Shown one piece after another: positions 7,556 through 59,135 of a stretch of 64,000 nucleotides of DNA. Origin of the DNA: Candidatus Poribacteria bacterium (GTDB taxonomy: Bacteria > Poribacteria > WGA-4E > WGA-3G). A program made the translations under genes and the position numbers. The stretch's first letter is position 1; each line of letters begins with the position of its first letter. Below the pieces are notes generated by a model, which was not told the origin of the DNA, searched no databases, and saw only the letters and a list, made by a program, of their open reading frames with translations. The DNA lies in contig OZ244616.1 in the NCBI GenBank assembly GCA_965218285.1, positions 1,728,133 through 1,792,132 on the forward strand, written 5' to 3'.

Positions 7556-9520
7556 TTATTTATTTTTATTTTCTTCACCCTTCGTCAATTCCATCATTGA
7601 GGGAACAAAAACGCGATCGCCTTCCTTGAGACCGCTGACGATTTCAAAATGTGTGTTATTGCGCCTGCCAACTTTAATATGTGTTTTAACCCCTTTTTCT
7701 TCGTCCTTCTTTTTTGGTGGTTCACCTGTGTCAAGCTTAACAAAATGCTGACGTTCGCTCCTAATTTCTGCTTCTATACCAGATAATCGGTTGTTATCAG
7801 AGATTACAATAGCAATCTCTGTTGGACCTGGGCGCATACCTTTCGGGGGTTCGTCAAACAAAATTTCAAGATTTCCGCGGGTTTCCGAGGGAGCAATTTT
7901 TACAACTTGTCCAGGAAATTGCTTGCCGATAAGGTTTTGGACTTTTAGTCTCTGGTCTTGCTGGAACTGTCCGAGTGCATCCGAAGCGACTGTGGCTTTT
8001 ACAGTAAACACCTCAGGACTTAATACTGCTGCTATCGGAATCTGAAGAATATCAGGTTTTTCAAAGACAATAATATCTACATCTGCCGACATTCCGGGTA
8101 ATAGTCGAAATTCTTGATCTGATATATCAACCTCTATATCAACCTCAAAGGTAATCACACCATTTCCGCCACCTTGACCTCGGGGGGTAGAACTTGGAGA
8201 AATTTCGCTCACTCTACCATTAAAAACTTTATTGCGATAACTATCAACTCGGATTTCTGCGCGTTGTCCCTCTTTTATCCTGCCGATTTCAACCTGATTA
8301 ATTTGTGTTTTGACAATCATTTGTGAAAGGTCAGCGATACGTATGATAGCTTCGCCACGGGAGAATGCAGAACGTCCAGAAGTGATAATCTCCCCCTCTT
8401 CTACAGCGAGGCGCGTAATTGTACCGGACATTGATGCTTTGACCGTTGTCCATTCGTAGCGTTCCTGCTGGGATTTAAGTCGACTTACAGCCTGGAGTAG
8501 GTTAGCTTTTGCACTAACTTTTGAATGTTTTGTCAGTGCTTTTTCGTCTTCAGTTGTTTCTTCCGCTTGTTTGAGTCGCGTGCGTGCGTTTTCCAAATCC
8601 GCAATTTGCTGCTTTTCCTGTGCATCTTGGGATTTTTTAACAGTCTCAACGTTCTTTTTATTTAGGGCAAGTGTTGCTTCTCGACTCTGAATGGCTTCCT
8701 TCATTGCCTTGATGGTTTCTTCTTGTGATTTAATCGTTTCCTTTTGGGATTCAACCTCTTTCTGGGCGGTTTCGTATTGCGAGGAATTCAAAGCGAGTTG
8801 CTTTTGGGACTGCTCCAATGTTTGCTGAGAAATAAGTTCTTTTTTAAAAAGTTCTTGGTTGCGTTCGTGTTCAGATTGTGTTGTCTCAAAGGTAATTTTC
8901 GCGGATTGGACACTTGCCTTCGCGCGATCAAGTGTTAATTTCGTTTGTGTTAAAGAGATCGCGCCCTGCTTCAATGAGATTTTGTCTCGGTTCAGCAAGT
9001 TCCGCGTTGTTGCAACAAGGGTTTCTGCTTCAATTATCCGTTGTTGCTTGTTTGCTTCAAAGGATTGAAGGTAAGCTTCGGCTTTAGCAACAGCGTTTTG
9101 TGCTTGAAGTAGGTCGCTTTTCTCCCGTTTCTCAGCAATCTGAATTCGGAGTTCTGCTTGGTCAAATTCGGCTTTTCGCGCATCTCGGTTGGCTTCTGCC
9201 TGCTTCTTTTCCTCAAGAATCTGCTCGGCGTCAATTCTCAGCAGCGGATCACCTTCCTGGACAAGGTCACCTTCTTCAACGAAAATTTCCTTTATTTCGC
9301 CCTCAACATTTGATCGAACATCCACCTCAATAAAGGGACGAAGGGTGCCAGATTCTTGAATTTTTACGAGGAATTCACCGCGCCGCACTACCTCGCGCTT
9401 GTCCTCATCTTCATCCTTTTTTTTACCAGAATTGATTCGGGTTGCACCTATCACACCTACTACGATGATAGCTATAGCAACCGCCATGATGATTAGCCAC
9501 TTCTTACGGATTTTGATCAC
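7556..9520 (-). CDS. HlyD/MacA-type periplasmic adaptor (membrane fusion) protein with unusually long coiled coil
   Basis: N-terminal TM helix, then about 300 aa of heptad-rich coiled coil, then beta-rich C-terminal domains. Its start overlaps the stop of the TolC-like gene (ATGA at 9520). Confidence 0.75.
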   Translation of the reverse strand: MIKIRKKWLIIMAVAIAIIVVGVIGATRINSGKKKDEDEDKREVVRRGEFLVKIQESGTLRPFIEVDVRSNVEGEIKEIFVEEGDLVQEGDPLLRIDAEQILEEKKQAEANRDARKAEFDQAELRIQIAEKREKSDLLQAQNAVAKAEAYLQSFEANKQQRIIEAETLVATTRNLLNRDKISLKQGAISLTQTKLTLDRAKASVQSAKITFETTQSEHERNQELFKKELISQQTLEQSQKQLALNSSQYETAQKEVESQKETIKSQEETIKAMKEAIQSREATLALNKKNVETVKKSQDAQEKQQIADLENARTRLKQAEETTEDEKALTKHSKVSAKANLLQAVSRLKSQQERYEWTTVKASMSGTITRLAVEEGEIITSGRSAFSRGEAIIRIADLSQMIVKTQINQVEIGRIKEGQRAEIRVDSYRNKVFNGRVSEISPSSTPRGQGGGNGVITFEVDIEVDISDQEFRLLPGMSADVDIIVFEKPDILQIPIAAVLSPEVFTVKATVASDALGQFQQDQRLKVQNLIGKQFPGQVVKIAPSETRGNLEILFDEPPKGMRPGPTEIAIVISDNNRLSGIEAEIRSERQHFVKLDTGEPPKKKDEEKGVKTHIKVGRRNNTHFEIVSGLKEGDRVFVPSMMELTKGEENKNK

Positions 9521-12776: not shown

Positions 12777-12805
12777 GCAAAAAAGGATAGTTTCAATCTA
12801 ATACA

Positions 12806-12987
12806 ACGTGAGTTTGATAAAAAGATACTATGATCCCCGTAGGTTGGGTAGAACGGAAAGGACAATAAAATCAAACACAAAATAGCGGTTCAGGATACAT
12901 TTGAAACTGAAAATAACGAGAAATTAGTGAAACCCAACTCTTTTTAACTTTTGGATGGACACTCGGATTCTAATATCAAACTCACGT
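12806..12987. repeat. MITE-like element, family 6 (copy 2)
   Basis: TIR acgtgagtttgata ... tatcaaactcacgt. Confidence 0.65.
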
Positions 12988-13170
12988 TAATACAGTTTGT
13001 TTTAGGACAAACCCCAATCTGTCCCTAATATCACAACCTCTTTAATCTGTAGAAGCCTACTGAATCAAATTATTGGCAGCACGGACGGGTCTAAAAAGTG
13101 TCTGCCTTTTAGTAGGCATTCCTTCCAACAACTTCGGATGCGGATTCCAATCGTGCCATTTGCTATTCAC

Positions 13171-13241
13171 AGTAAGCAAGTTTCAATATTAAATTTATGT
13201 TTTTGATCTTCAGACCCGTTGGAAGTATGGAAGTTGGGAAG
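13171..13241. repeat. About 70-bp dispersed repeat, family 7 (second copy at 23242-23320)
   Basis: agtaagcaagtttcaatattaaatttatgtttttgatcttcagacccgttggaag(t/a)(a/t)tggaagttgggaag is near-identical at both loci. Confidence 0.65.
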
Positions 13242-13494
13242 TTAACGACTTTTCAAAAGTTCTTCCCATAAGCTGGATACCTCCACGCAATTTGATAAAT
13301 AGTATACCATAATTTGAGATTGTCTCAACATTTTTTGTTGTAAATCGTGGAAAATTATGATATACTAACGTGATCTCGGTGTCCGATAATAACGTGAGTT
13401 TCGGTATAGATAGGAGGATGTTTTTACCTATTTCGGACCTTCTAAATGAAGATTATGAATTTAATCGGGTAATTTCCAGTTTTCTTGTAGTATC

Positions 13495-13518
13495 CGGTGC
13501 GGTTAGGAAACCGCATCT
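13495..13518. repeat. REP-like hairpin, variant ccggtgcggttaggaaaccgcatc
   Basis: Same 9-bp stem as the ggtgcggtt/aaccgcacc family, with the loop agga. Confidence 0.5.
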
Positions 13519-13817
13519 ACCAGGTTTGGGGTTCAAGCCCGTAGGGTATTGCCTAACTAATGATATTCATGGTTTCCATTCCGTCGAGTTTTAAAATGTC
13601 AAACACGTCGCCATTGACACAAAACCGTGCGAACAACGCAATCGTTAGATTCACCATCTCCACGCTTTTTAAAACAATCAGAAACAGACACTCTTGACAC
13701 AGAAAGCACACACCTTTTCCGGACGATGTGATTGGTGTGGAGCATCAAACGTGCAAGTCAGTTGTGATTACGAAACAGAGTTTGAAACCGATAATACTAC
13801 CGATTCTGATAAATAAA

Positions 13818-13940
13818 ATACCATTACGGAGTATTTATGACATTTTAGAGCGCATCTTATGTTGTGTATAAGAGGCGCAATGAATTGCGCGACTACAAAC
13901 GCGTTTTTTGTTAATGTGATGCCATCATTCAGAAATGGTA
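13818..13940. repeat. MITE-like element, family 3 (8-bp TIR ataccatt/aatggtat, core gaggcgcaatgaattgcgcgactacaaacgcg)
   Basis: Near-identical copies at 30250-30356 and 27654-27767. Confidence 0.65.
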
Positions 13941-14078
13941 TACGAAACGTTTCGTATTAATCTGTGAGACATGTAGCACAGATTAAATTCCTCACGATAA
14001 AAAAAATCAATAAAAAAAATGAAGAAATATTAATTCCGATACAACTAATTCTGTAACATCTGTGCAAGGTGGACTTTT

Positions 14079-14636
14079 ATGATTCCAGATGATGTTTATG
14101 TACACAAAACAGTAGAGGGCGATGCTGAAGCATTCAACGAATTGGTCAATCGCCACCATACCAAAATCTATGGGCTTGCATACCGCATGCTCGGTAACGC
14201 TGAAGATGCCGAAGATGCCACGCAAGAAACGTTCTTAGAGGCTTATAAGTCAATAAAAACGTTTCGGTTCCAATCGCAATTCGGAACGTGGTTATATCGT
14301 GTCGGCATGAACACTTGCAATCAATACATCCGAAAAGCCAAATCCCGCAACAGAATGCTGGACGCATACACCGAAGAGACCGCATCACACGGCATGACTG
14401 AAGAACGGGAGATACCCGAACGGATGGCGATAAAGACTGAACAACGCCAGGTAATTCAAGCGGCTATTGACCGACTGCCTCCGAAGCAACGTGAGGTCGT
14501 TACGTTATATTATATGCAACACCTCAAATACAAAGAGATCGCTGAAATCCTTGACTGCTCTCTCGGAACTGTCGCCTCACGATTAAATAAAGCTATGCAA
14601 AATCTCAAAGTGAAGTTGGAAAAATACTACTATTGA
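14079..14636 (+). CDS. ECF-type RNA polymerase sigma factor
   Basis: Sigma-70 region 2 (ATQETFLEAYKSIKTFR, GTWLYRVGMNTCNQYIRK) and region 4 (LPPKQREVVTLYYMQHLKYKEIAEILDCSLGTVASRLNKA). Confidence 0.9.
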   Translation: MIPDDVYVHKTVEGDAEAFNELVNRHHTKIYGLAYRMLGNAEDAEDATQETFLEAYKSIKTFRFQSQFGTWLYRVGMNTCNQYIRKAKSRNRMLDAYTEETASHGMTEEREIPERMAIKTEQRQVIQAAIDRLPPKQREVVTLYYMQHLKYKEIAEILDCSLGTVASRLNKAMQNLKVKLEKYYY

Positions 14637-14642
14637 GAAATC

Positions 14643-15374
14643 ATGGCTGCCACGGAAGCAAATTCTCAACCCATAAAAGCGAGGATTGTTAAAATGAGTT
14701 GTGAACAGACTCGTGAAAACTTGGTTTTACATCGTCAAGATTCCACGTTAAAGGGTGCGCAGCGGCGTGAATTTCTACAACATTTGCGCGGCTGCAAGGC
14801 GTGCCAAGTCGAATATGAAGGATTATGGCATACTGCCGCTTTAATGGGCAGCCTTGAAGCACCGGAGCCACCCCCCGAGTTGCTCGGAAATATCCAACAT
14901 CAAATTCGGAAGATACATAAGCAGAGTCAAACTGCTTTCTTTGCAAGCCCTATCTCATGGGTGTTCGGTAAGTTGAAGTTAGAGTTCTCACCAAAGTTTG
15001 TGAATTGTGCTGCGCTTCTCTGTTATGTACTCGCGTCAACTTTCATGGTGAAATTTGCTTTCTTTACAGACGCACCACCACAGGAATTCGGTTATACTGT
15101 GATGGAAGAGGCACGTCTCCGAAACATACGCATTTTACCTTCACCGTGGGCGACGCTAAAACACGAAAGTGATAAGATTGATAAAGCACTTCCTATAAAG
15201 GCATCAAATGAAAATCGTGTAAGCCTTTCTAACCTATTTGTTGACATTAAGACACCAGAGATGTGGCATCCCGATATGATTAATCGTGGCACTGAAACCG
15301 TTGATTTACACCTCTCAAACACGGCAAACACAAAACTTGCCTTATTCTGGAGTAACATCAAAGCAAATTTGTAA
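14643..15374 (+). CDS. Putative anti-sigma factor (ZAS-like zinc motif, one TM segment)
   Basis: Starts 7 nt after the ECF sigma stop. HLRGCKACQ (H-x3-C-x2-C). Central hydrophobic helix AALLCYVLASTFMVKFAFF. Confidence 0.55.
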   Translation: MAATEANSQPIKARIVKMSCEQTRENLVLHRQDSTLKGAQRREFLQHLRGCKACQVEYEGLWHTAALMGSLEAPEPPPELLGNIQHQIRKIHKQSQTAFFASPISWVFGKLKLEFSPKFVNCAALLCYVLASTFMVKFAFFTDAPPQEFGYTVMEEARLRNIRILPSPWATLKHESDKIDKALPIKASNENRVSLSNLFVDIKTPEMWHPDMINRGTETVDLHLSNTANTKLALFWSNIKANL

Positions 15375-15584: not shown

Positions 15585-16073
15585 TTGACACAACCCCTAC
15601 TTGAAGTCTCTAATTTAAAAACAGTATTCCCTACAGATGGTGGCGTTGTAAACGCCGTGAACGATGTCAGTTTTTCCATTGCACGTGGTAAAACCGTTGG
15701 CATCGTAGGAGAGAGCGGGTGTGGAAAAAGTATCACCGGACTTTCGCTTCTCCAACTTGTGCCGAATCCGGGCAGGATTGAAAAGGGTGAGATTCTGTTT
15801 TACCGCCAATCACCAAAACACCCCTACACAGAGGCGTTGATATCCGCCGTTCCGCTTCCATATCCAAAGTGGCAACGTGAACGTGAACTTATTCGGCTTG
15901 AAGGAGATGTGCCCGATCCATCTCAACCGCCGACAGGGTGTCATTTCCATCCACGGTGCTGCTATGCAACCGATGTTTGCAAACAGGAAACACCGGAACT
16001 GCGTGAAATCACACCCGATGTTAAAGTTGCGTGCCATCTGAGTGAAACCTTGGAATTGCAAGGAGTATCGTGA
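15585..16073 (+). pseudogene. Deletion-derived hybrid: OppD-like N-terminus (Walker A only) fused in frame to the last ~83 aa of the OppF-like ATPase
   Basis: First ~79 aa are essentially identical to 17493.. (one R/A substitution), then continue with the C-terminal tail of 18553..19554. The junction lies at ...EILFYR|[15 protein letters not shown]. No Walker B or ABC signature remains. Confidence 0.65.
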
Positions 16074-17020
16074 TGCCAAAATTAAATCAGATAACACCAG
16101 AAGAACTCGCATCTTGTAGAAAGCAGCTTGAACGCCAATGGAATAGCCGAAAAGTCGATGAAACATTATTAGAACGTGCGTGGCAAGTCGCTTATGAGAT
16201 TGCTACACTTCTCTATGACGAGTTTGGTGCGACACAGGTTGCTGCCTTCGGGTCGCTTGCAGAACCGATCAGTTTCACAAAGTCATCAGATATTGATATT
16301 GCGGTATGGGGACTCTCGGATAAAGCACATTCAGAGGCGAACAACAAAGTTATGGACATTGGGACAGGATTCAAAATTGACCTCATTAATTTTGATACGA
16401 CGAAAGGACTTTTCCGTGAAAGAGTCCTGCAGCAAGCGATTCCTATAAAGAAAGGTGAACTCCCTACATTATGGAAGACACTTTACCAGCATTTACACCG
16501 TCAAGTTTTCCCTGCCGTGGAGGAAGAAATATACGAAATGAACAGAAAAAAACTCACACAACGTATCAATGATGAACTCGTAAAAATAGAATCTACTGTT
16601 GACGCAATTGCAAAGGCTTTAGAAGATATTGAAGTAGTTCCAACTAACTATAGACAATATATAGAAGAATCAATTGCCAATAAACTTGTCGATGTTTATA
16701 GTGGCATGGAACGAATCTTTGAGCGGATTGCAAACGAAGTGGATGGACATCTACCGCGCGGAAGTAGATGGCATAAGAATTTACTTGAACAGATGACAAA
16801 ACAACGTCCTGAAAGACCACCTGTAATTTCAGAGCAGACATATTACCAATTAGGTGAACTTTTGGATTTCCGCCACAAAGTGAATAACATCTACGGTAGA
16901 GAATTGAAATATGATAGCACATTAGTGCACGCCGAGACAATTGGAGAAGTGTTTGCCAGTGTTTCTCAAGATTTCAATACTTTCACCGATTCACTTGCGA
17001 AAAGCGAGAAGGATACTTGA
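16073..17020 (+). CDS. Fused minimal nucleotidyltransferase (Pol-beta-fold MNT) + HEPN-like domain protein, copy 1
   Basis: NTase motif AFGSLAEPISFTKSSDIDIAV (GS-x11-DxD). C-terminal HLPRGSRWH (R-x4-H). Start ATG overlaps the upstream stop (TGATG) and is preceded by AAGGAG. Confidence 0.6.
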   Translation: MPKLNQITPEELASCRKQLERQWNSRKVDETLLERAWQVAYEIATLLYDEFGATQVAAFGSLAEPISFTKSSDIDIAVWGLSDKAHSEANNKVMDIGTGFKIDLINFDTTKGLFRERVLQQAIPIKKGELPTLWKTLYQHLHRQVFPAVEEEIYEMNRKKLTQRINDELVKIESTVDAIAKALEDIEVVPTNYRQYIEESIANKLVDVYSGMERIFERIANEVDGHLPRGSRWHKNLLEQMTKQRPERPPVISEQTYYQLGELLDFRHKVNNIYGRELKYDSTLVHAETIGEVFASVSQDFNTFTDSLAKSEKDT

Positions 17021-17492: not shown

Positions 17493-18569
17493 TTGACACA
17501 ACCTCTGCTTGAAGTCTCTAATTTAAAAACAGTATTCCCTACAGATGGTGGCGTTGTAAACGCCGTGAACGATGTCAGTTTTTCCATTGTGCGTGGCAAA
17601 ACCGTTGGCATCGTAGGAGAAAGCGGGTGTGGAAAAAGTATCACCGGACTTTCGCTTCTCCAACTTGTGCCGAATCCGGGCAGGATTGAGAAGGGTGAGA
17701 TTCTGTTTTACCGCGATGAAACAGAGGAACCGTTAGATATAGCGCAAGTATCGCCGCGAAGCGAGTTGATGCGAAAAATACGGGGCAACGAAATCGCTAT
17801 CATCTTCCAAGAACCGATGACATCACTAAATCCTGTCTATACCGTTGGAGACCAGATCGCTGAGGCTATTGTGTTACACCAAGAACATAAACGTTCGACT
17901 CTGGCACGTTTCGGTTTGCAAGCAACACCAAAGTGGGCACGCGAACGTGCTATTGAGATGCTTGCCCGTGTCGGCATCCCCGCACCTGACCAACGTCTTG
18001 ATGAGTATCCGCATCAACTGTCAGGTGGAATGCGGCAACGCGTGATGATTGCCATGGCACTCTGTTGTGCCCCCGCGCTCCTCATCGCAGACGAACCGAC
18101 TACGGCACTTGATGTCACAATTCAAGCACAAGTCCTCACCCTCATGCAGGAACTACAAGCGGAAATCGGGATGGCGATTATGTTGATTACACACGACTTA
18201 GGTGTTATCGCCGATATGGCTGACGAAGTGGTCGTGATGTATGCAGGGCGTGTCGTTGAAAAGGGAAGTGTTGACGACATTTTCTATAATCCTTTGCACC
18301 CATACACGCGTGGCTTGCTCAACTCCATTCCAACGCTTGGGGGTGGTCAGCAAAAAACGCTGCATTCTATTCCCGGAACGGTGCCGCACCCATTAGCACT
18401 GCCTATCGGATGCTCTTTTCAGCCACGATGTGCAGAACATATACCGACCTGTGAACAGATGCCTGAACTCAAGATTATTGATGTTCTCAAAAATACTACT
18501 TCCGAAAACGGTAGGCATGCAGTTAGGTGCTGGCTTTGTGAGGAAAATACCGATGTCGAAACTGCTTGA
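17493..18569 (+). CDS. oppD: Oligopeptide/dipeptide ABC transporter ATP-binding protein (OppD/DppD-like)
   Basis: Walker A GESGCGKS, signature [15 protein letters not shown], Walker [14 protein letters not shown]-terminal oligopeptide-transporter tail. The TTG start is preceded by AGGA. Confidence 0.85.
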
Positions 18570-19554
18570 AGTCAAAGACTTACGTAAATATTTTCCGATA
18601 CGGAAAGGCATTCTCCGTCGAACTATCGGACATGTGAAAGCGGTTGATGGCATTAGTTTCGACGTAGAACGCGGCGAAACCCTTGGATTGGTCGGTGAAA
18701 GCGGCTGTGGAAAGACAACTGCCAGCCGGTGTCTACTCCGCTTAATTTCACCAACAAGCGGCAGCTTCACATTTGGTAATGAACAAGTGGATTTGGCAAA
18801 ATTGACATCTCAACAGATGCGTCCTTTTCGCAGACATATCCAGATGATTTTCCAGGATCCGCAGTCTTCTCTGAACCCTCGTATGACGGTAGAAGGCATT
18901 GTGGGTGAACCGCTGCGCGTTAATCGCACCGTAAAAAGAAATGAACTACGAGACCAAATTGTTGAACTCTTGGAATCTGTCGGTTTAAAACCACAGGACA
19001 TGCGCCGTTATCCGCACGCCTTCAGCGGTGGTCAGCGGCAACGTATCGGAATTGCGCGTGCATTAGCACTCCACCCGGACCTGATCGTAGCAGATGAACC
19101 GGTGTCAGCACTTGATGTCTCCGTGCAGGCGCAAATTCTCAACCTACTGGCGGAGTTGCGTGAAAAATTTCAACTTTCCTATATCTTTATCGCTCATGAC
19201 TTGAGCGTCGTTGAACATATCAGTGATCGTGTGGCAGTGATGTATCTCGGAAAGATTGTTGAGATTAGCGATGCAGCGACACTCTATCAATCACCCAAAC
19301 ACCCCTACACAGAGGCGTTGATATCCGCCGTTCCGCTTCCAGATCCAAAGTGGCAACGTGAACGTGAACTTATTCGGCTTGAAGGGGATGTGCCCGATCC
19401 ATCTCAACCGCCGACAGGGTGTCATTTCCATCCACGGTGCCGCTATGCTACCGATGTTTGCAAACAGGAAACACCGGAACTGCGTGAAATCACACCCGAT
19501 ATTAAAGTTGCATGCCATCTGAGTGAAACCTTGGAATTGCAAGGAGTATCGTGA
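18553..19554 (+). CDS. oppF: Oligopeptide/dipeptide ABC transporter ATP-binding protein (OppF/DppF-like)
   Basis: Walker [36 protein letters not shown], Cys-rich C-terminal tail [14 protein letters not shown]. Start placed at [10 protein letters not shown] with GAGGAA RBS. The track start 18430 is probably too far upstream. Confidence 0.85.
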
Positions 19555-20501
19555 TGCCAAAATTAAATCAGATAACACCAGAAGAACTTGCATCTTGTAG
19601 AAAGCAGCTTGAACGCCGATGGAATAGCCGAAAAGTTGATGAAACGTTAATAGAACGTGCGTGGCAGGTCGCTTATGAGGTCGCAACACTTCTCTATGAC
19701 GAATTCGGTGCAACACAGGTTGCTGTCTTCGGGTCGCTTGCAGAACCGATCAGTTTCACAAAGTCATCAGATATTGATATTGCGGTGTGGGGACTCTCGG
19801 ATAAAGCACATTCAGAGGCGAACAACAAAGTTATGGATATTGGGACAGGATTCAAAATTGACTTGATTAATTTCGATACAACGAAAGGGATTTTCCGAGA
19901 AAGAGTACAACAGCAAGCGATTCCTATAAAGAAAGGGGAACTCCCTACATTATGGAAGACACTTTACGAGCATTTACACCGTCAAGTTTTTCCTACTGTA
20001 GAAGAAGAAATATACGAAATGAACAGAAAAAAACTGACACAACGTATCAATGATGAACTCACAAAAATAGAAGATACGCTCACAAGAATAACAAGAGGGT
20101 TAGAACAACTGAAAGTGGTTCACGTTGATGTCAGAGAATTCATTGAGAATACAATCGCCACAGATCTTGCTGATATCTATAGTGGCATAGAACGAATTTT
20201 TGAGCGGATTGCAAACGAAGTAGATGGACACCTACCACGCGGAAGTAGATGGCATAAGAATTTACTTGAACAGATGACAAAACAACGTCCTGAAAGACCA
20301 CCTGTAATTCCAGAGCAGACATATCACCAATTAGGTGAACTTTTGGATTTCCGCCACAAAGCGAATAACATCTACGGTAGAGAATTGAAATACGATAACA
20401 CATTAGTGCACGCCGAGACAATTGGAGAAGTGTTTGCCAGTGTTTCTCAAGATTTCAATGCGTTCACCGATTCCCTCGCGAAAAGCGAGAAGGATGCTTG
20501 A
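19554..20501 (+). CDS. Fused MNT + HEPN-like protein, copy 2
   Basis: About 90% identical to 16073..17020 except for the divergent patch at 20058-20175. Same TGATG coupling to oppF. Confidence 0.6.
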   Translation: MPKLNQITPEELASCRKQLERRWNSRKVDETLIERAWQVAYEVATLLYDEFGATQVAVFGSLAEPISFTKSSDIDIAVWGLSDKAHSEANNKVMDIGTGFKIDLINFDTTKGIFRERVQQQAIPIKKGELPTLWKTLYEHLHRQVFPTVEEEIYEMNRKKLTQRINDELTKIEDTLTRITRGLEQLKVVHVDVREFIENTIATDLADIYSGIERIFERIANEVDGHLPRGSRWHKNLLEQMTKQRPERPPVIPEQTYHQLGELLDFRHKANNIYGRELKYDNTLVHAETIGEVFASVSQDFNAFTDSLAKSEKDA

Positions 20502-21256: not shown

Positions 21257-22093
21257 CTATTTCCGTTTGATGTCTGCCCAGGTTGTAGCCAATTTTCCTG
21301 AGGCTTCAACGGCTGTTAGCGGAAAAATTTCCTCAAAAAAACTTGCTTTATCAGTTGCATCTTTGGGATAGATTGTCACGGCTTCATGTGTTGCATCATC
21401 AAAGTGCAAGTTGAAGTATGCTGAACCGCTGCCTTCACCACAACGAAAGAGAAGCACGTTAGCACCTTTTTGCAACCTGACTTCAATGTTATAATCAACA
21501 TTATATGTACCACCTGTCCACGTTGCATTATTGTGCCATTTTTCACCGTTAATCCATATCTGTGCATAATCATCTTGCGCGGGGGACATCACGGAGGTCA
21601 TATCTGCTGGAGAATCAATAACAATGACAGCGTAGGTATCCAGATTATCTATTGGACCTCCTCTGTTCATATTATCACCATCTGCTGGATCAATTTCAAA
21701 GACTGTCCAAGCTCGCGTGCCACCATGATCATCTCCCCATTCAACATCAACAACTTCTTGAGTTAATAGCAATCCTTCAAATGTTGAAAGAGAAACATCA
21801 GTAATTCTGTCACGGGTACCTACTGCCATAAGGTCCATAGGACCAGAAGTGCTGAATCCACCATTGTTTTCATAGTTGCCATCGGGACCATACCATTTGG
21901 TAATCCAAGTTTGTACAGCAGTATGGTCTTCGTTTAAATGATCTGTGTTTGGTCGAGTCACTGAGAGATTTTCTTCAGTCAACGGCCCCCCACTTTCGTT
22001 AACAACTCCTTGTGCCATAACGAGGTGGGAACCGCTTACAACTATCACAAAAACAATAGTGACTGCAAGTGCAAGAGTATTAAATCTTTTCAT
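21257..22093 (-). CDS. Secreted concanavalin-A/LamG-like jelly-roll protein, paralog 1
   Basis: Signal peptide. WINGEKWHNNATWTGGTYNVDYNIEV and LLFRCGEG blocks. C-terminal tail GKLATTWADIKRK. Confidence 0.45.
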   Translation of the reverse strand: MKRFNTLALAVTIVFVIVVSGSHLVMAQGVVNESGGPLTEENLSVTRPNTDHLNEDHTAVQTWITKWYGPDGNYENNGGFSTSGPMDLMAVGTRDRITDVSLSTFEGLLLTQEVVDVEWGDDHGGTRAWTVFEIDPADGDNMNRGGPIDNLDTYAVIVIDSPADMTSVMSPAQDDYAQIWINGEKWHNNATWTGGTYNVDYNIEVRLQKGANVLLFRCGEGSGSAYFNLHFDDATHEAVTIYPKDATDKASFFEEIFPLTAVEASGKLATTWADIKRK

Positions 22094-22308
22094 TTTTCCT
22101 TCTTCCTTCTCTATAGATTAGATTGTTTTGAACTGGGTTAAACTAAGGTTTACTCCAGATTTCCTATTTAGGTTATAAAACGTTGAAAATTCATTTAACA
22201 TTACAACAACTATTGTAATATATTGGCAAAAATTTGTCAATATATTACAAACAAAAACGACAATTTTTTGTACAAACTTGTATTCAAACAATAGATATCC
22301 GAATTCTG

Positions 22309-23145
22309 TTATCGGTTTCGCTTGATATCTGCCCATGTTGTCGTTAACTTTTCATGTGGTTCAACCGGCAGAATACCCTCAATTTCGTCAAAGAAAGTAT
22401 CCTGATCTGTCGCTTTATCGGGAAAGATCTTCACTGCTTTGTGAGTTTCGTCATCAAAGTGCAAGTTGAAGAATGCTGAACCCCCACCTTCACCACAACG
22501 AAATAGGAGGACATTGGTGCCCTTTCTGAACTTCACCTCAATGTTATAATCAACATTATATGTACCACCTGTCCACGTTGCATTATTGTGCCATTTTTCA
22601 CCGTTAATCCATATCTGTGCATAATCATCTTGCGCGGGAGACATCACGGAGGTCATATCTGTTGGAGAATCAATAACAATGACAGCGTAGGTATCCAGAT
22701 TATCTACTGGGCCTCCTCTGTTCATATTATCACCATCTGCTGGATTTATTTCAAAGACTGTCCAAACTCGCGTGCCACCATGATCATCTCCCCATTCAAC
22801 ATCAAACTTTTTCGTCCTGAGCAATCCGTTCATTGTCGAAAGTGAGACATCGGTAATCTCACCAGCAGTGCCTTCAGACATCAAATCTCTGGGACCAGAA
22901 GTATTGAACCCACCATTGTTTTCATAGTTGCCATCGGGACCATACCATTTGGTAATCCAAGTTTGTACAGCAGTATGGTCTTCGTTTAAATGATCTGTGT
23001 TTGGTTGAGTCACTAAAAGTTCGTTGTCTTTTAGTGGACCGCCTTCCTGGTTTACCTTCCATTGTGCAAACGCAAAGTGTGAGGCACTGACAATCAGTCC
23101 AAAAACTGAAATAATTGTCAGTATAAATGTAAGAATTTTTTTCAT
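22309..23145 (-). CDS. Secreted concanavalin-A/LamG-like jelly-roll protein, paralog 2
   Basis: About 75% identical to paralog 1. C-terminal tail EKLTTTWADIKRNR. Confidence 0.45.
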   Translation of the reverse strand: MKKILTFILTIISVFGLIVSASHFAFAQWKVNQEGGPLKDNELLVTQPNTDHLNEDHTAVQTWITKWYGPDGNYENNGGFNTSGPRDLMSEGTAGEITDVSLSTMNGLLRTKKFDVEWGDDHGGTRVWTVFEINPADGDNMNRGGPVDNLDTYAVIVIDSPTDMTSVMSPAQDDYAQIWINGEKWHNNATWTGGTYNVDYNIEVKFRKGTNVLLFRCGEGGGSAFFNLHFDDETHKAVKIFPDKATDQDTFFDEIEGILPVEPHEKLTTTWADIKRNR

Positions 23146-30396: not shown

Positions 30397-31953
30397 CTAA
30401 TGTAAATGTTACTATAGTTTGGACAGTTTGAAGTTTTTTAGAGACAAAAAGCAGAAAAGAGGGTATCCTTTCAGTATATATATTTTTTTTTGAAAGGATA
30501 ATTGAAATGGACCCTCTTCTCCGCTTATATTCTATGTTATCAGAATATCAAGACCACTTCAAGTATAAAAACTTCGACCATTTTCGCACTTTTGTCTTGG
30601 GTTTGATAAATACCCCGCATCGTGGCACCATGACACAGATATATCTATCAACAGAACAATCAACAACCTATTGGCCTCTACCGAAGTTTCTCTCTCGTAG
30701 CGTATGGAGTGTTGATAAAGTCACATCAGTATTGACACAACAAGTTCAATCCGTTTTCAATAAAGGTGTCTATGTCTATGATGAAACCCATTCTACGAAT
30801 GATGGTCTTCAGCAATATGGCACGCATTTCTTCAGAAACACGCGGTATAACAAACGCAACAAGAACCAATCGAAGTTCCATCACGGACACGAGTTCGGTG
30901 CTATCGGTTGGCTCTGTGAAACACCACAAGGGGTGCGTCTGTTTCCGTTAGCGGCTCGGGTGATGTGTCCGGGCAAAAAACGGGATAGCAGTCTTGCGGT
31001 GCTCAAGCGTATCTGTGCTCAGATGCCTGCGGGTCTGATCGTATTTGACAGAGGCTTTAATAGACGCAAGGTGTTTACACAAATCCTTTCACAAGGACAC
31101 CACTTACTCTGTCGCACAAAGTCAAATGCTGTGTTCTTTTATATACCCAAGCCACCCAAGCAACAGGGACAAGGTAGACCGAAACGTTATGGCGGTCGTG
31201 TGCATCTACCCTATCTGCAGTATAGAGATATCATCGTGAAAAACAAGACCCTTTCTGTCGCAGACAAAATCGTGCGGACAAAAATGTGTCCGGTGGATGT
31301 GCGGCTCGTTGTGATACGCACACGCCCAAAGAAGTCTAAACCCTATCGCTATTTTTGTTTATTCACCTCCGACTTAGAACGTCCGGTAGCCGAGTTGATC
31401 CAACACTATAGAAATCGGTGGCAGATTGAAACCGCATTCCGAGATGTCAAACAGAACTTCGGTTTTGATACCTATCAACTCCGAAAACGCAAGAGTTTGA
31501 ACCGGTTTGCTCAACTCAGTTTTGTCGCAGCAACTCTCACACAACTCATTTTCACAAAGACAACGACCAACACAGCATCAGAAACGAATATAGACGATGT
31601 GCCTCTTGACTTAGAAGACGTGCTGCTTGCCCTAAATAGGCATTGGTATAAAGCCAAATATCTCACACGCGGGTTGATGACCGCTTATTTGCAACGATGT
31701 TTCCAACAACAATGTTTTTCTACGAGTTACGATACAAGACAAAACTCAAAGAAAAATCTAAAAATAGTTGAAGACTCTACATGAAAATGAGCAGATGGAC
31801 ATATTTGGACGATTATTTCAAAAATAATGGCTAAAGGACAGTGATTTCCAACAGAATTCAGAGATGCAAGAGTGTGGACAAACCATATTTAACTCCTGAT
31901 CGGAAGTCCTGACAGGATAAAACTGTCCAAACTATAGTAAATGTTAGAATGGA
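30397..31953 (+). mobile_element. IS4-family insertion sequence, about 1.56 kb, imperfect ~33-bp terminal inverted repeats
   Basis: Left end ctctaatgtaaatgttactatagtttggacagttt. Right end aaactgtccaaactatagtaaatgttagaatgg. A single transposase ORF lies inside. Confidence 0.75.
30507..31784 (+). CDS. IS4-family DDE transposase
   Basis: YRNRWQIETAFRDVKQ (Y-x2-R-x3-E-x6-K signature). Confidence 0.85.
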   Translation: MDPLLRLYSMLSEYQDHFKYKNFDHFRTFVLGLINTPHRGTMTQIYLSTEQSTTYWPLPKFLSRSVWSVDKVTSVLTQQVQSVFNKGVYVYDETHSTNDGLQQYGTHFFRNTRYNKRNKNQSKFHHGHEFGAIGWLCETPQGVRLFPLAARVMCPGKKRDSSLAVLKRICAQMPAGLIVFDRGFNRRKVFTQILSQGHHLLCRTKSNAVFFYIPKPPKQQGQGRPKRYGGRVHLPYLQYRDIIVKNKTLSVADKIVRTKMCPVDVRLVVIRTRPKKSKPYRYFCLFTSDLERPVAELIQHYRNRWQIETAFRDVKQNFGFDTYQLRKRKSLNRFAQLSFVAATLTQLIFTKTTTNTASETNIDDVPLDLEDVLLALNRHWYKAKYLTRGLMTAYLQRCFQQQCFSTSYDTRQNSKKNLKIVEDST

Positions 31954-33388: not shown

Positions 33389-34129
33389 TTAGTAATACTT
33401 TTTCATTTGTGCCCAACTGACAGCTAACTTCCCGCGTGCATCAACAGCAAGCACCTGATCCCACGGAATATTTTCACCGCTTGCATCGGCTTGATGAACA
33501 TCATCAAAGTTCGGATGTCCCCAACCGCCGCTGCTTTTATCAACAACAACAAGTTGGACGGTTTTGCCTTTGAGATCGGAAACATCCCACTCTCGCCGGG
33601 TCATGGTTTCTGTTTCATTACCGGTCATTGTCAGTTCAACCTTGTCATTAATCACAAGATTGACACAACATGGCTCAGCAGTACCCCAAGCACGGTTGCC
33701 GCCGCCCATAAGAAAATTCATCGTTTCTCCGACAATTGTAAACTCAATTGAGGTCAAGGTGCCTTGAGGGAGATCCGGTTGACCGTTACCCGCAAGATCA
33801 CCAGCATCCTGCCCCAGTTTTGCTCCTTTATCCGGTCCTTGGTACTTTTCAGCTAATCCAAGCCACCAATCGCCTTGATGTTGAGAAGGCTGCCCACGGT
33901 CCCGTGCTGTTGGGTTATCTCCCCACGTCGGTTGAAAATCAAATGCGTCTCCTGTTTTCTCCTCCCAATCGGTGAGGTCGCCTGTCTCAAAATCATTGTT
34001 AAACGATCGCGCAAAGGCGAGATTGACAGGCAAAACAAACAGGATCGCAAGAACAGAGGGTATCATAACTGAGAAAAACATTCTTGTGATATTCCCATGA
34101 CTAAAGTCGTGGGCTTCTTGCTTCTTCAT
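33389..34129 (-). CDS. Secreted jelly-roll (LamG/DUF1080-like) protein
   Basis: Start at MKKQ preceded by AGGAGG, with a signal peptide. C-terminal tail GKLAVSWAQMKKYY. Confidence 0.4.
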   Translation of the reverse strand: MKKQEAHDFSHGNITRMFFSVMIPSVLAILFVLPVNLAFARSFNNDFETGDLTDWEEKTGDAFDFQPTWGDNPTARDRGQPSQHQGDWWLGLAEKYQGPDKGAKLGQDAGDLAGNGQPDLPQGTLTSIEFTIVGETMNFLMGGGNRAWGTAEPCCVNLVINDKVELTMTGNETETMTRREWDVSDLKGKTVQLVVVDKSSGGWGHPNFDDVHQADASGENIPWDQVLAVDARGKLAVSWAQMKKYY

Positions 34130-55453: not shown

Positions 55454-56266
55454 TTATTGCAAGGATTTAAGTTGTCCCCAAACAACGCTGACTTTACCCG
55501 TTGGGTCTACCGATTGTAATTCGGTGGCAAAACGATTCGACATGAGTTCAGCAAGTTCTATTGCGATTTGGTCATTTGGCGGAATGGTAGTGCCGGAAGA
55601 TGTATGGAAGTTGATGAACCATCCGTCCATATCATCTGTTCTGTAGGCGATTGGATCCGCATCTGTGCCGTTATCTGAATAACTTTCAAACTCAAAATTG
55701 TTTTGTTCTAAAACTGTCATACCTACAGGACGGTTTGATGTCCACTGTTTGAGTGAAGGCATATATTGCTTACCTAAATCGGTAGGGGATGCATTTACAG
55801 TATTAGCATTTGTAACGGTAACGCCAAACACACTTTGCTGACCTCTCTTCTCATTGGTAACCCGACTATTTGTACCATAATTCCAATAATAGTAGAAAGG
55901 CCAATCCCCAATCATTGCAGCGATTCCACCATCCCTTAACCAAGAATGAATCAAATCGTCTGCTCCCTTATTTTGGAATATTGTATCTGGGACATTTCCC
56001 TGGGTAAGGACTATGATACCATTTGGGTTTGCATTCATATATTCTGCAACACCTTCACCGTCAACGATTTCCGCAGTTAGTTTGTTATCCTCAAGTTTTT
56101 CTACAATGAGGTCTGCTAACCCTTGCGCCCCCGGTTGCCCTCCTGGAATGCCTAAGCCAGCACCTTTTTCCAAATTAATATCGTAAGCAACAGCGACGTC
56201 TTGTGCGAAACTGTAACTCACAAAAGTTAGCACGATAATTGATATAATACAAAAAAACTTTTTCAT
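55454..56266 (-). CDS. Secreted ThuA-like / class-I glutamine-amidotransferase-like protein
   Basis: Start MKKFF with AGGAGA RBS and a signal peptide. C-terminal tail GKVSVVWGQLKSLQ. Confidence 0.4.
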   Translation of the reverse strand: MKKFFCIISIIVLTFVSYSFAQDVAVAYDINLEKGAGLGIPGGQPGAQGLADLIVEKLEDNKLTAEIVDGEGVAEYMNANPNGIIVLTQGNVPDTIFQNKGADDLIHSWLRDGGIAAMIGDWPFYYYWNYGTNSRVTNEKRGQQSVFGVTVTNANTVNASPTDLGKQYMPSLKQWTSNRPVGMTVLEQNNFEFESYSDNGTDADPIAYRTDDMDGWFINFHTSSGTTIPPNDQIAIELAELMSNRFATELQSVDPTGKVSVVWGQLKSLQ

Positions 56267-56450: not shown

Positions 56451-59135
56451 TTGATGAATCAAAAATACAAATCCGTTTACTTTCCGGATCATCCGGGGGA
56501 AACATCTCAGAAAAAATCGTTAACTTTAGCATTTGGTAAGAAAACAGGTGAACTTTATGAGCGTATTAAGGGACTTTCAAGTGCTGAACTTCGTCAGTTA
56601 TTTGGAGATGACTATCAAACACTTGTAGAAAATGCTAAAGTTGATGACTTACCTTTAAACACCTATTGCCTTCGCCAATTAAAGCAATCTGTGAATTTTA
56701 TTCATGATCCTGCTATTCAACTTAAACTGCCAGGTATGGAGGAAAAAACAGAATTATTTGATCCGGTGACTGTAACTTTTAAGGATGGACGAAAAGAGCC
56801 TTTTGCTCGATGGTACCCGTACTTAGAAGGATACTCAACCCAATTTGTGGAAGCAATATTGAAAAACTACGCCCCGAACGCCCAGAACATCTTAGATCCA
56901 TTTGCTGGAACAGGAACAACCGTCTTCACCGCTGCCCAACTTAACAAAGCTGCTTATTTCTGTGAAGTAAATCCAGTTCTGCAATTTATAAGTTTAACAA
57001 AAATACGGATCCGGTTATTAAAGGTGTCTCAACGATCAGCAATAGCCAAAGAACTTGTTCAAGTTAAAAATTCGCTAAAAAAACTTGAAAAAATTCCACG
57101 AAATTATGCTCTACATCAAGCATACATACAAACCTTTGGCGACAGTTTATTTTTTGATGCACCTGTTTATGACAAGGTTTTACGAACTCGCTCGTGGATT
57201 GATGAAGTCGCCCTTGAAAATCCAATCTTAGCCGACCTTATCACAGTTGCTGTCCTATCAGCCCTTGTCCCTGCGTCCCGGATGAAACGGTCAGGTGATT
57301 TGAGATACAAGACAGCAAAGGAACTTGCGCGGCAAACAGTACCGCTCATTGAAGGTATTTGCCAAAATTTCAATCAGATAGCTCATGATATCCGAAATGA
57401 TGTTGATGGACTGAAAACTGAACCATTGCTAATATGTGAAAACGCTCACACGTTAGACAATATATCACCTCTCGGTATTGATACCGTAATTACAAGTCCA
57501 CCTTATGTCAATGGAACAAACTATTTTCGCAATACGAAGATAGAATTATGGTTCTTGCGTTGTTTAAAAGAAAAGAAAGACTTGACAAGGTTTCGCGCTG
57601 CTTCCTTAACTGCAGGCATCAACGATGTAACTGTCTCTAAAATGCCTACTCTATCTCACCCCAGTGTTCAGAAAATTGTTTCCAAACTTAAACAAAATGC
57701 CTACGATTCCCGTATCCCTCGGATGGTTGCTTGTTATTTTAGTGAGATTACGGAAGTATTCAGGGCAATTGGTCCTCACTTAACCCCTGATGCAACAGTC
57801 GCGATTGATATTGGGGATTCTTGTTACGCAGGTGTTCACGTTCCGGTAGATGAGTTGTTGTCAACGTGCCTGCAAGACCTAGGTTTTGTTCAAAAAGATT
57901 CCATGACACTACGAAAACGCAAATCTAGAGGTGGAATGTTGCTTAAACAATCATTACTTGTATTTAAACATTCCTCCAAACCGAAAAGAGAAACTTCCAA
58001 TAAGCGAATCATGGATTGGAGCGACGATTGGAACATCTTCAAGCAAAACCTACCCCACCAGAAAACACCGTTTGCTAAAAGGAATTGGGGGAACTCTCGG
58101 CACTCCTTATGTTCTTATCCTGGCAAACTTAAACCTGCTATCGCACACCATTTGGTACAAACATTTGTTCCAGAAGATGGGCGAGTTTTAGATCCATTCG
58201 CGGGTGCCGGCACAATTCCATTTGAGGCATCACTGGCCGGTAAACACGCCTACGGTTTTGAGATAAGCCCCGCCGCTTTTGCTATTGCTAGTGCGAAGGT
58301 TCAACAACCTACTGAACAGGGTTGTACAACAGTTATTGAGACATTAGAAAATTTTATTGACTGTCACTCAACCGCAGATGCAGAGGTCACTGAAGTGAAG
58401 CATCTAGGGTTCAATGGAAAGATTGTCGAATATTACGAGGCTCAAACCTTGAGAGAAGTTCTCTTAGCGCGACGCTATTTTCAAATTCATCCACCCCAGA
58501 CACCCGAAGAGCGATTGGTGTTTGCTTCGCTGCTCCATATTTTGCATGGCAATCGTCCGTATGCGCTCAGTCGCCGTTCCCACCCACTTACACCTTACAA
58601 ACCTACCGGTCCTTACGAATATCGTCCGCTGATCAATCAACTACGCGCGAAAGTCCAGCGGAGTTTGGATGAAAATTTGCCAGTGAATTTTAAACCGGGA
58701 AAGATATTTTTCCAAGATGCAACAAACTGGTGGCCTAGAGAGATCGAACAACTAGATGCCGTTATTACGTCTCCACCTTTCTTTGATAGTACTCGATTTT
58801 ACGCTGCGAATTGGTTACGGCTATGGTTTTCAGGTTGGTCCGCCCATGATTTTAAAACATGCCCATCAGTTTTTGTTGATGAAAAGCAAAAAAATAGTTT
58901 TGATGTATATATCCCAATTTTTCGCCAAGCGAAAGAACGACTAAAATCTAATGGCGTGGTTGTGATGCATCTAGGAAAAAGTATTAAGTGTGATATGGCG
59001 GATCATTTACAAAAGCTTGGTAAACAGTGGTTTCGTTCGGTAGATCTGTTTGATGAAAACGTTGCACATTGTGAATCTCACGGTATCCGAGACAAAGGAA
59101 CAGTTACGTCACATCAGTATCTTGTTTTGTATTGA
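56451..59135 (+). CDS. DNA methyltransferase with two tandem amino-MTase modules
   Basis: Module 1: ILDPFAGTGTTVF (motif I) ... VITSPPYVNGTNYF (motif IV). Module 2: LDPFAGAGTIPF ... VITSPPFFDSTRFY. Each I-to-IV spacing is about 190 aa. Confidence 0.75.
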   Translation: MMNQKYKSVYFPDHPGETSQKKSLTLAFGKKTGELYERIKGLSSAELRQLFGDDYQTLVENAKVDDLPLNTYCLRQLKQSVNFIHDPAIQLKLPGMEEKTELFDPVTVTFKDGRKEPFARWYPYLEGYSTQFVEAILKNYAPNAQNILDPFAGTGTTVFTAAQLNKAAYFCEVNPVLQFISLTKIRIRLLKVSQRSAIAKELVQVKNSLKKLEKIPRNYALHQAYIQTFGDSLFFDAPVYDKVLRTRSWIDEVALENPILADLITVAVLSALVPASRMKRSGDLRYKTAKELARQTVPLIEGICQNFNQIAHDIRNDVDGLKTEPLLICENAHTLDNISPLGIDTVITSPPYVNGTNYFRNTKIELWFLRCLKEKKDLTRFRAASLTAGINDVTVSKMPTLSHPSVQKIVSKLKQNAYDSRIPRMVACYFSEITEVFRAIGPHLTPDATVAIDIGDSCYAGVHVPVDELLSTCLQDLGFVQKDSMTLRKRKSRGGMLLKQSLLVFKHSSKPKRETSNKRIMDWSDDWNIFKQNLPHQKTPFAKRNWGNSRHSLCSYPGKLKPAIAHHLVQTFVPEDGRVLDPFAGAGTIPFEASLAGKHAYGFEISPAAFAIASAKVQQPTEQGCTTVIETLENFIDCHSTADAEVTEVKHLGFNGKIVEYYEAQTLREVLLARRYFQIHPPQTPEERLVFASLLHILHGNRPYALSRRSHPLTPYKPTGPYEYRPLINQLRAKVQRSLDENLPVNFKPGKIFFQDATNWWPREIEQLDAVITSPPFFDSTRFYAANWLRLWFSGWSAHDFKTCPSVFVDEKQKNSFDVYIPIFRQAKERLKSNGVVVMHLGKSIKCDMADHLQKLGKQWFRSVDLFDENVAHCESHGIRDKGTVTSHQYLVLY

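Follow-up and report, generated by a model that had tools for sequence, protein, structure and literature searches.

Why do exported proteins that have little else in common end in the same short peptide? The question is raised by a stretch of 64,000 nucleotides from Candidatus Poribacteria bacterium (assembly GCA_965218285.1, contig OZ244616.1, positions 1,728,133 to 1,792,132 of the forward strand; this whole stretch is the window), in which four genes of the minus strand encode proteins with closely similar C-terminal tails. The answer towards which we lean is that the tail is a lineage-specific recognition tag that a dedicated partner reads in the periplasm, sorting the proteins bearing it (the carriers), processing them C-terminally, or doing both, and that an anti-sigma factor encoded in the same window, which ends in a variant of the tail, serves as a pseudo-cargo through which sigma activity is linked to this pathway. 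The four carriers of the window and their tails, scored on the position-specific scoring matrix (PSSM) described below, are as follows (aa, amino acids; ORF, open reading frame).

21257..22093, minus strand: carrier A, a 278-aa predicted exported beta-sandwich protein with a signal peptide, a CBM35/PA14-like fold and a flexible tail; ends in GKLATTWADIKRK
21260..21310, minus strand: tail of A, VEASGKLATTWADIKRK; 47.6 bits, 2 aa before the stop
22309..23145, minus strand: carrier B, a 278-aa tandem paralog of A with 75% identity; ends in EKLTTTWADIKRNR
22312..22365, minus strand: tail of B, VEPHEKLTTTWADIKRNR; 46.6 bits
33389..34129, minus strand (ORF to 34168, ATG at 34129): carrier C, a predicted exported protein of about 246 aa with no Pfam family; ends in GKLAVSWAQMKKYY
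33392..33445, minus strand: tail of C, VDARGKLAVSWAQMKKYY; 29.0 bits
55454..56266, minus strand (ORF to 56293, ATG at 56266): carrier D, a predicted exported protein of about 270 aa; ends in GKVSVVWGQLKSLQ
55457..55510, minus strand: tail of D, VDPTGKVSVVWGQLKSLQ; 23.7 bits

The preliminary description of this DNA had reported these four ORFs and the tails in which they end, and both were recovered exactly, with an N-terminal signal-like segment on each protein. A strict six-frame regular-expression scan of the window found the motif in carriers A to D only, always 2-3 residues before the stop, and a relaxed pattern added one further match, at the end of ORF 14643-15374 on the plus strand. Three of the carriers had been called otherwise unrelated, and the three families to which they belong did remain unlinked by BLAST once the tails were removed. 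Carriers A and B had been described as tandem LamG-like paralogs; they are tandem paralogs, but the LamG assignment is not established for them, as neither has a Pfam match and a Foldseek search with carrier A gave weak matches to CBM35/PA14-like beta-sandwiches (E ~4e-4). Orthologous fragments of carrier C keep KLAVSWAQMKKYY, and carrier D falls into a BLAST cluster (cluster 3) together with six carriers of other loci. Genes for LptF/G and a TolC-like OEP in the window mark the host as a diderm with lipopolysaccharide.

Carrier A allowed the tail to be followed within one family. An exact look-up of its sequence returned no record, and it has 595 homologs, of which all those with an organism name are Candidatus Poribacteria. 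Among the best 120 of the 595, down to 65% identity, the tail is kept as V-E-[PA]-x-G-K-L-[TA]-T-[TIV]-W-[AG]-D-[ILM]-[KR] plus 2-3 residues. The signal peptides of the family diverge while the tail stays, and V262, E263, K267, T270, W272 and D274 are invariant in an alignment of 25 sequences. In the AlphaFold2 (AF2) model of carrier A (predicted local distance difference test, pLDDT, 76.7) no secondary structure is found past residue 256, residues 271-278 score below 50, and the tail appears as an unstructured appendage outside the fold, with a pLDDT of about 40.

The distribution of the tail was approached from the DNA and from the protein side. The core K-L-x-T-T-W-[GA]-x-I-K was back-translated to a degenerate 30-nt pattern and searched in one genome each for 185,579 species, where by our own arithmetic (15 fixed and 5 partly fixed bases, 596 Gb, two strands) about 26 hits would be expected by chance. 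The scan returned at least 119 loci; among those listed, 108 are labelled Poribacteria, eight "uncultured bacterium" (one of them, L108, is clearly poribacterial to judge from the genes around it) and three carry other labels, namely Pseudomonadota (L027, a metagenome-assembled genome, MAG, from a sponge), Deltaproteobacteria (L063) and Verrucomicrobiaceae. An in-frame stop follows 1-7 residues later (mode 3) in 127 of the 129 matches listed. The Verrucomicrobiaceae match lies inside a reading frame that reaches its next stop 308 residues past the motif, and is read as a chance match. Several loci share one chromosome, for instance on OY764016.1 and CAXXEU010000002.1. On the strength of this sample of at least 119 loci, the sequence motif is essentially confined to one phylum, Poribacteria.

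A softened PSSM of 18 columns was then run in six frames over the window and the 119 loci (0.95 Mb) at a threshold of >=14 bits. It gave 208 hits, 201 of them within 8 residues of a stop and about 75 representing divergent copies beyond the reach of the DNA pattern; reversed sequences gave no hits at >=12 bits. The enrichment at C-termini that the preliminary description had asked to be checked is thus borne out by both scans. On the protein side, an exhaustive search of 1.84 billion cluster representatives with a hidden Markov model (HMM) of the tail only yielded 306 proteins at E <=0.001. All but about six of the best 149 end close to the motif, at a distance of 0-9 residues in most cases and of 11-20 in a few, the exceptions among these 149 being five low-complexity false positives and one chimeric fragment. 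A 44-aa profile gave 30 short candidates in a 5.8e9 database, and metagenome sampling anchored on the HlyD gene gave only two close loci. As to abundance, carriers make up 4 of the 50 genes of the window and 2 of about 80 genes in some 89 kb of poribacterial DNA that had been fetched through unrelated genes (the loci anchored on the anti-sigma factor). Extrapolation from these densities suggests that carriers are a few percent of genes, or about a hundred or more per genome of 5-6 Mb.

The alignment of the matches redefined the motif itself. The consensus first proposed was of about 12 residues; its core stands, but its length was underestimated, as conservation reaches about 6 residues further upstream. 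Positions that the search pattern left unconstrained are conserved too, with V at -5 in 112 of 115 sequences, P at -3 in 84 of 115, [ED] at -4 and G, D or N at -1, and therefore the real motif has about 17 residues: [LA]-x-V-[ED]-P-x-[GDN]-K-L-[TAS]-T-T-W-[GA]-x-[IL]-K plus 1-6 mostly polar or basic residues. Once divergent copies are included, the K, the W and the final K are each conserved in at least 90%, the W being invariant, and conservation peaks at W, K, V and T-T whatever the carrier family. Within K-L-x-T-T-W-G-x-I-K both faces are conserved. The residues after the motif, which closes with the conserved K, are variable (20% R and 8% K), SLQ, KYY, AEY or similar being the endings of many tails. 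The tail is hydrophilic, with a mean Kyte-Doolittle hydropathy of -0.87 over the last 16 residues and 0.28 in the best 12-residue window.

That selection acts on the protein follows from the DNA. The four tails of the window use differing synonymous codons (GGA AAA TTG, GAA AAG TTA, GGG AAG TTA and GGT AAA GTC) and the DNA 3' of their stops is unrelated; this is therefore a protein motif under selection and not a repeated DNA element. The view that the tail is a by-product of a repeated 3'-end element (a terminator, a recombination site or a mobile cassette), or else part of one ancestral fold, could appeal to the tandem clustering in which carrier genes are often found. We consider it scarcely credible, and it was ruled out by these codons and downstream sequences, by the spread of the tail over at least 24 families that differ in Pfam fold, and by the position of the tail outside the modelled fold. 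Pfam and NCBIfam models gave no match to the tails even at E up to 10, and full-text literature searches with motif strings, or with Poribacteria and sorting-related terms, returned nothing relevant on the motif. It belongs to no tested family and is undescribed in the curated models and the literature searched.

The carriers are diverse in everything but their tails and their predicted export. With tails removed, 193 carriers form 24 clusters unlinked by BLAST. The largest, with 107 members, is Laminin_G_3, which is the commonest carrier family; representatives of others match 3-keto-disaccharide hydrolase/ConA-like (3keto-disac_hyd), F5/8 type C (discoidin), CBM9, NPCBM, PD40, Kelch and LTD models, and several have no Pfam match. 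By a hydrophobic-segment heuristic, 183 of 187 carriers (98%) have an N-terminal signal-like segment, against 145 of 516 non-carriers (28%), so the enrichment on signal-peptide proteins that had been predicted was found. Lipoboxes are rare. The small carriers are uniform in size (median 265 aa), and the passengers are mostly lectin-like, beta-propeller and leucine-rich repeat (LRR) binding modules. The HMM search added large carriers of 500-5735 aa, which are LRR/internalin-like, WD40, LTD, Big_1 and metzincin proteins, two of them on the Poribacteria chromosome OX639973.1 (6,656,312 bp). In these the tail is preceded by a conserved domain, ...YYYRIEDVSHAG...LATVRLRG, for which Pfam and NCBIfam have no model. 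In the C-terminal ~100 aa of P0135, P0136, P0193 and P0252 this domain (...YTWTDTTAKPNxVYYYRIEDVSHAGxRxQLATVRLRG) always stands directly before the tail of LRR, LTD or WD40 giants.

The one further match of the relaxed pattern in the window lies on a regulator rather than on a cargo protein. The genes and elements concerned are these (ECF, extracytoplasmic function; ABC, ATP-binding cassette).

14020..14048, plus strand: bipartite element TGAAGAA-N15-CAACTAA upstream of the sigma gene, a candidate autoregulatory ECF-type promoter
14079..14636, plus strand: ECF sigma factor (Pfam Sigma70_r2, r4_2, ECF), partner of the tail-bearing anti-sigma factor
14643..15374, plus strand (ORF; probable start M18 at 14694, 226 aa): zf-HC2 anti-sigma factor, by Pfam and NCBIfam matches
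15330..15371, plus strand: variant tail on the anti-sigma factor, TKLALFWSNIKANL, by conservation among homologs
17493..19554, plus strand: oppD/oppF-type oligopeptide ABC ATPases (Pfam ABC_tran and oligo_HPY), downstream of the sigma/anti-sigma pair

The anti-sigma factor consists of a cytoplasmic zinc-finger domain, one transmembrane (TM) helix, a disordered periplasmic spacer of about 90 aa and a conserved C-terminal peptide. Its AF2 model, built on an alignment of 50 sequences, has a confident N-terminal helical domain and a TM helix at 100-124, followed by about 90 residues with pLDDT 31-47. It has 106 homologs with identities from 37% to 92%, of which all those with an organism name are Poribacteria. 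The C-terminal consensus (E/K)KL(T/A)(L/V)FW(S/N)(D/H)IKT(N/E/D)L is kept in 104 of the 106, and no stretch of the protein is more conserved than its last 13 residues, which reach 3.78 bits per column versus 2.33 for the preceding periplasmic segment. In this variant the residues of K-L-[TA]-x-x-W-x-x-I-K are spaced as in the cargo tail and the distance to the end is again 3 residues; in the window it scores 9.8 bits on the cargo PSSM. A relaxed C-terminal pattern that matches 166 of 195 carriers matched the anti-sigma factor alone among 604 non-carrier ORFs and none of 120,800 shuffled C-termini; internal occurrences, which the preliminary description had named, for cytoplasmic proteins, as a finding that would speak against a C-terminal signal, amounted to one in 270,549 residues. 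From the homologs and the model we conclude that the anti-sigma factor presents a related peptide to the periplasm by way of a flexible tether, which implies that the reader of such peptides is reachable from the periplasm.

The sigma gene adjoins the anti-sigma gene in all seven genomes sampled. In six of the seven, at anti-sigma identities down to ~41%, the pair belongs to a same-strand, tightly spaced block in the order M24 Xaa-Pro aminopeptidase, small HEAT_2 protein, sigma, anti-sigma, oppD, oppF, to which two genomes add SBP_bac_5, oppB and oppC. The oppD/oppF genes keep their position in these six genomes, and the seventh, L134, has no opp genes; a functional link to the sigma/anti-sigma pair may exist, as judged from conserved context only. 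The bipartite element recurs upstream of sigma in L130 (9327-9355), L131, L132 and L134 (9304-9332), with a similar form in L136 and L137, and had 0 copies in shuffles, so that it is a plausible autoregulatory promoter. A regulon search with it gave one extra site, at 573-601 on the minus strand of L047, without a clear downstream ORF.

Some details of this block vary between genomes. In the window, about 1.3 kb of ORF-free DNA (12777-14078) replaces the genes upstream of sigma. A HEAT_2 remnant is left at 13691-13798 (78% over 36 aa), HEAT_2 preceding sigma in five of the six other genomes; the M24 aminopeptidase gene, upstream of sigma in all six others, has no match anywhere in the window. 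Two paralogous 316-aa genes for fused Polbeta-nucleotidyltransferase/HepT-like_2 proteins of MNT-HEPN type (16070-17020 and 19551-20501, plus strand) bracket oppD/oppF, and one or two such genes are kept after oppF in L130, L133, L135 and L136. In L134 the plus strand at 7595-8701, at under 1 kb upstream of the sigma gene, encodes a tail-bearing protein of 368 aa (..SPRGKIATTWASLKMR); this is the genome that lacks opp after the anti-sigma gene.

C-terminal tags on exported proteins are already known; what is new here is one that is short, hydrophilic, unstructured, restricted to one phylum and echoed at the end of an anti-sigma factor. The tail had been likened to sorting signals in general and to PEP-CTERM and the C-terminal domains (CTDs) used in type IX secretion (T9SS) in particular. 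Seven attributes have been set out for tripartite C-terminal sorting signals, among them a cluster of 2-5 basic residues at the end, N-terminal signal peptides on most carriers and many carrier pairs without homology outside the signal (Haft, bioRxiv 10.1101/2023.06.07.544157). Five of the seven were found for the tail: C-terminal location, multiplicity, invariant signature residues, signal peptides and unrelated carriers. The hydrophobic TM segment was not found, and the basic cluster is at best weak, so that the general likeness is partial. The LPXTG/sortase, PEP-CTERM/exosortase, GlyGly-CTERM/rhombosortase and MYXO-CTERM/myxosortase systems likewise have signals at the extreme C-terminus, in many copies per genome, with a near-invariant signature, on otherwise unrelated carriers with N-terminal signal peptides and with a restricted lineage; the V-E-P of the tail even resembles, superficially, the V-P-E-P of PEP-CTERM. 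Unlike these signals, the tail has scattered R and K in place of an Arg cluster and matches no NCBIfam CTERM model. Lacking a TM segment, it would never anchor a protein in the membrane, and therefore an intramembrane sorting protease cannot be its reader. The resemblance to PEP-CTERM or LPXTG is thus one of C-terminal placement on different exported proteins and cannot extend to mechanism, and the standing of the tail as a sorting signal is one that we infer.

The comparison with T9SS leads to a similar result. Its CTDs (TIGR04183-type) are also C-terminal tags on Sec-exported, often adhesin- or lectin-type proteins of diderms, but they are folded Ig-like beta-sandwiches of 70-100 residues, for which the poribacterial tail, with ~17 residues modelled as disordered and no sequence similarity, is too short and unstructured. 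T9SS-type CTDs have been seen in Poribacteria, where T9SS genes were not found in single-cell genomes (Kamke et al., PMC3909097). The poribacterial loci analysed here also hold such long CTDs (NYPNPFNPETWIPYQL...YFYTLTAGDF..RKMLIRK) on proteins of 530-980 aa, of LRR type (L003 3278-4870 and 5593-7425; L104 4492-6354; L111 5519-7789; L119 701-2389; L090 5056-8001), and by sequence two different C-terminal tags coexist in this phylum. Fusions of the two were never found in complete proteins. The idea that the motif is a prelude to a T9SS-type CTD was not supported, because nearly all of the matches listed then stop and the CTD proteins of the same loci are without the motif. An apparent alternation of tail and CTD on homologous passengers was rejected as well, the mixed cluster being a single-linkage artefact of WD40/PD40 repeats. 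The one exception to the separation of the two tags is P0189, a 97-aa fragment in which the short tail, GKLTTVWADL, continues in frame into the final strand of a T9SS-type CTD (SGVYFYTLKAVDFSASCKMSMRK), either through an assembly chimera or through recombination of one tag with the other.

The DegS PDZ/RseA/sigma-E system, with Prc-cleaved anti-sigma factors, ties a periplasmic reader of C-terminal peptides to an ECF switch and is a possible analogy. In systems of this type the anti-sigma factor bears no cargo-like peptide and the signal of outer-membrane proteins, YxF, is formed by the very last residues; the poribacterial anti-sigma factor, unlike these, displays a tethered variant of the cargo tag. 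The beta-signal of outer-membrane proteins (a terminal aromatic residue on a beta-barrel) was not found on the carriers, whose last residues are variable and whose passengers have soluble lectin-like or propeller folds. Dockerin/cohesin systems with RsgI likewise place one C-terminal handle on many unrelated carbohydrate modules and have an anti-sigma factor that shares a module type with the cargo. The dockerin, on the other hand, is a folded Ca-binding domain of ~70 residues from Gram-positive bacteria and the poribacterial tail is a short peptide; no cohesin-like acceptor was found in the neighbourhoods of carrier genes.

How might the recognition tag work? After Sec export and removal of the signal peptide, a soluble passenger would expose its tail in the periplasm, where a dedicated partner would read it as an extended peptide. 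Conservation on both faces of the core suggests beta-strand insertion into a binding groove. The partner might then pass the protein to the cell surface or the medium, or cleave the tail, plausibly near V-[ED]-P, or do both, as sortase-like systems and PorU do, and the anti-sigma factor, as pseudo-cargo or pseudo-substrate, would couple sigma activity to how heavily the tail pathway is loaded or how much it can handle. Several points weigh against this account. No non-carrier gene family recurs beside carrier genes, and the neighbourhood analysis turned up no receptor, protease or translocon as a partner; only generally expanded families recur there, taken from sequence as putative PhyH-like, oxidoreductase, sulfatase and FGE-sulfatase proteins. 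The carrier genes have no common promoter motif, their upstream regions being enriched only in Shine-Dalgarno k-mers, probably through a bias in start calling. The anti-sigma tail is without the V-E-P-x-G half, has L/V-F in place of the cargo T-T and reaches only ~8-10 bits on the cargo PSSM, so that it could bind a different partner from the cargo tail. Two true C-terminal matches come from MAGs that bear other labels, Pseudomonadota (L027) and Deltaproteobacteria (L063), and the taxonomic picture given by the genome scan is that of a sample. Finally, cleavage, surface location and secretion of the carriers are themselves conjectural.

Two further explanations compete with the recognition tag. 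The tail could be a C-terminal pro-peptide or protease-recognition tag, cut for maturation or turnover by a periplasmic tail-specific (Prc/Ctp-like) or PDZ protease, with X-Pro peptides imported via Opp and trimmed by Xaa-Pro aminopeptidase and with the anti-sigma tail as a substrate of the same enzyme, its site-1 protease. It is known that Prc trims short C-terminal extensions such as that of PBP3, that CtpA does likewise with pre-D1, and that Prc and DegS act on anti-sigma factors. This explanation, which we judge unlikely though worth keeping in sight, fits the evidence about as well as a sorting signal does: the sigma/anti-sigma pair stands between M24 Xaa-Pro aminopeptidase and oppD/F in six of seven genomes, a cut after the V of V-[ED]-P would yield an X-Pro N-terminus, and the anti-sigma peptide is at the extreme periplasmic end. 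The argument is nevertheless one from gene order alone, in a synteny that may be inherited and that is absent in L134, and no S41 or PDZ protease is consistently near, a single HtrA-like gene lying 7 kb away in L130 only. Moreover, recognition of PDZ type normally reads the last 3-4 residues, which are the variable ones in the tail, and there is no evident reason for a common pro-peptide on hundreds of unrelated lectin-like proteins. The small, mostly single-domain carbohydrate-binding or adhesin-type carriers would be accounted for if the tail were an extracellular docking tag, a "mini-dockerin" that joins a surface scaffold or other carriers by non-covalent beta-strand augmentation and so builds a coat of lectin-like modules, export through the outer membrane taking another route. 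The free, flexible tail with its strand-like core conserved on both faces would suit such a role. This we hold to be distinctly improbable: the anti-sigma variant is tied to the inner membrane by a ~90-residue spacer, which points to a periplasmic reader, no protein with repeated acceptor modules was seen near carriers, and a peptide of 10-17 residues is short for stable docking.

Poribacteria are uncultivated and dominant sponge symbionts, and the route by which their LRR, WD40 and lectin-like "eukaryote-like" proteins reach the surface or the host has been a question since the discovery of T9SS-type CTDs unaccompanied by T9SS genes (PMC3909097). The tail provides a simple sequence rule that selects a large and coherent exported set across poribacterial genomes, and the tail peptide and the sigma/anti-sigma pair are handles toward the machinery. 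It is possible, and we propose this only tentatively, that the recognition tag reveals a new envelope pathway. Soluble intermediates in the periplasm would carry a C-terminal peptide without a TM segment, and a dedicated machine of the periplasm or outer membrane would read this peptide and sort or process, per cell, about a hundred or more "eukaryote-like" proteins of lectin, LRR and WD40 type. The pathway would police itself through an anti-sigma decoy, and its cleaved tails might be recycled by Opp/PepP. If so, the tail would be a new class of bacterial sorting signal under a regulatory logic of its own, would define the interaction proteome exported by a dominant sponge symbiont, and would extend the catalogue of sorting and processing tags to a form without a membrane span or a folded domain. 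Current discovery rules demand a TM helix together with an Arg cluster and would therefore overlook a tag of this kind, and a curated HMM of the tail would better annotate thousands of "hypothetical proteins".

Two other genes of the window are recorded here. A DDE transposase is encoded at 30507-31784 on the plus strand. Adjoining carrier D, at 56451-59135 on the plus strand, is the gene for an 894-aa protein with two SPPY/SPPF methyltransferase-like motifs.

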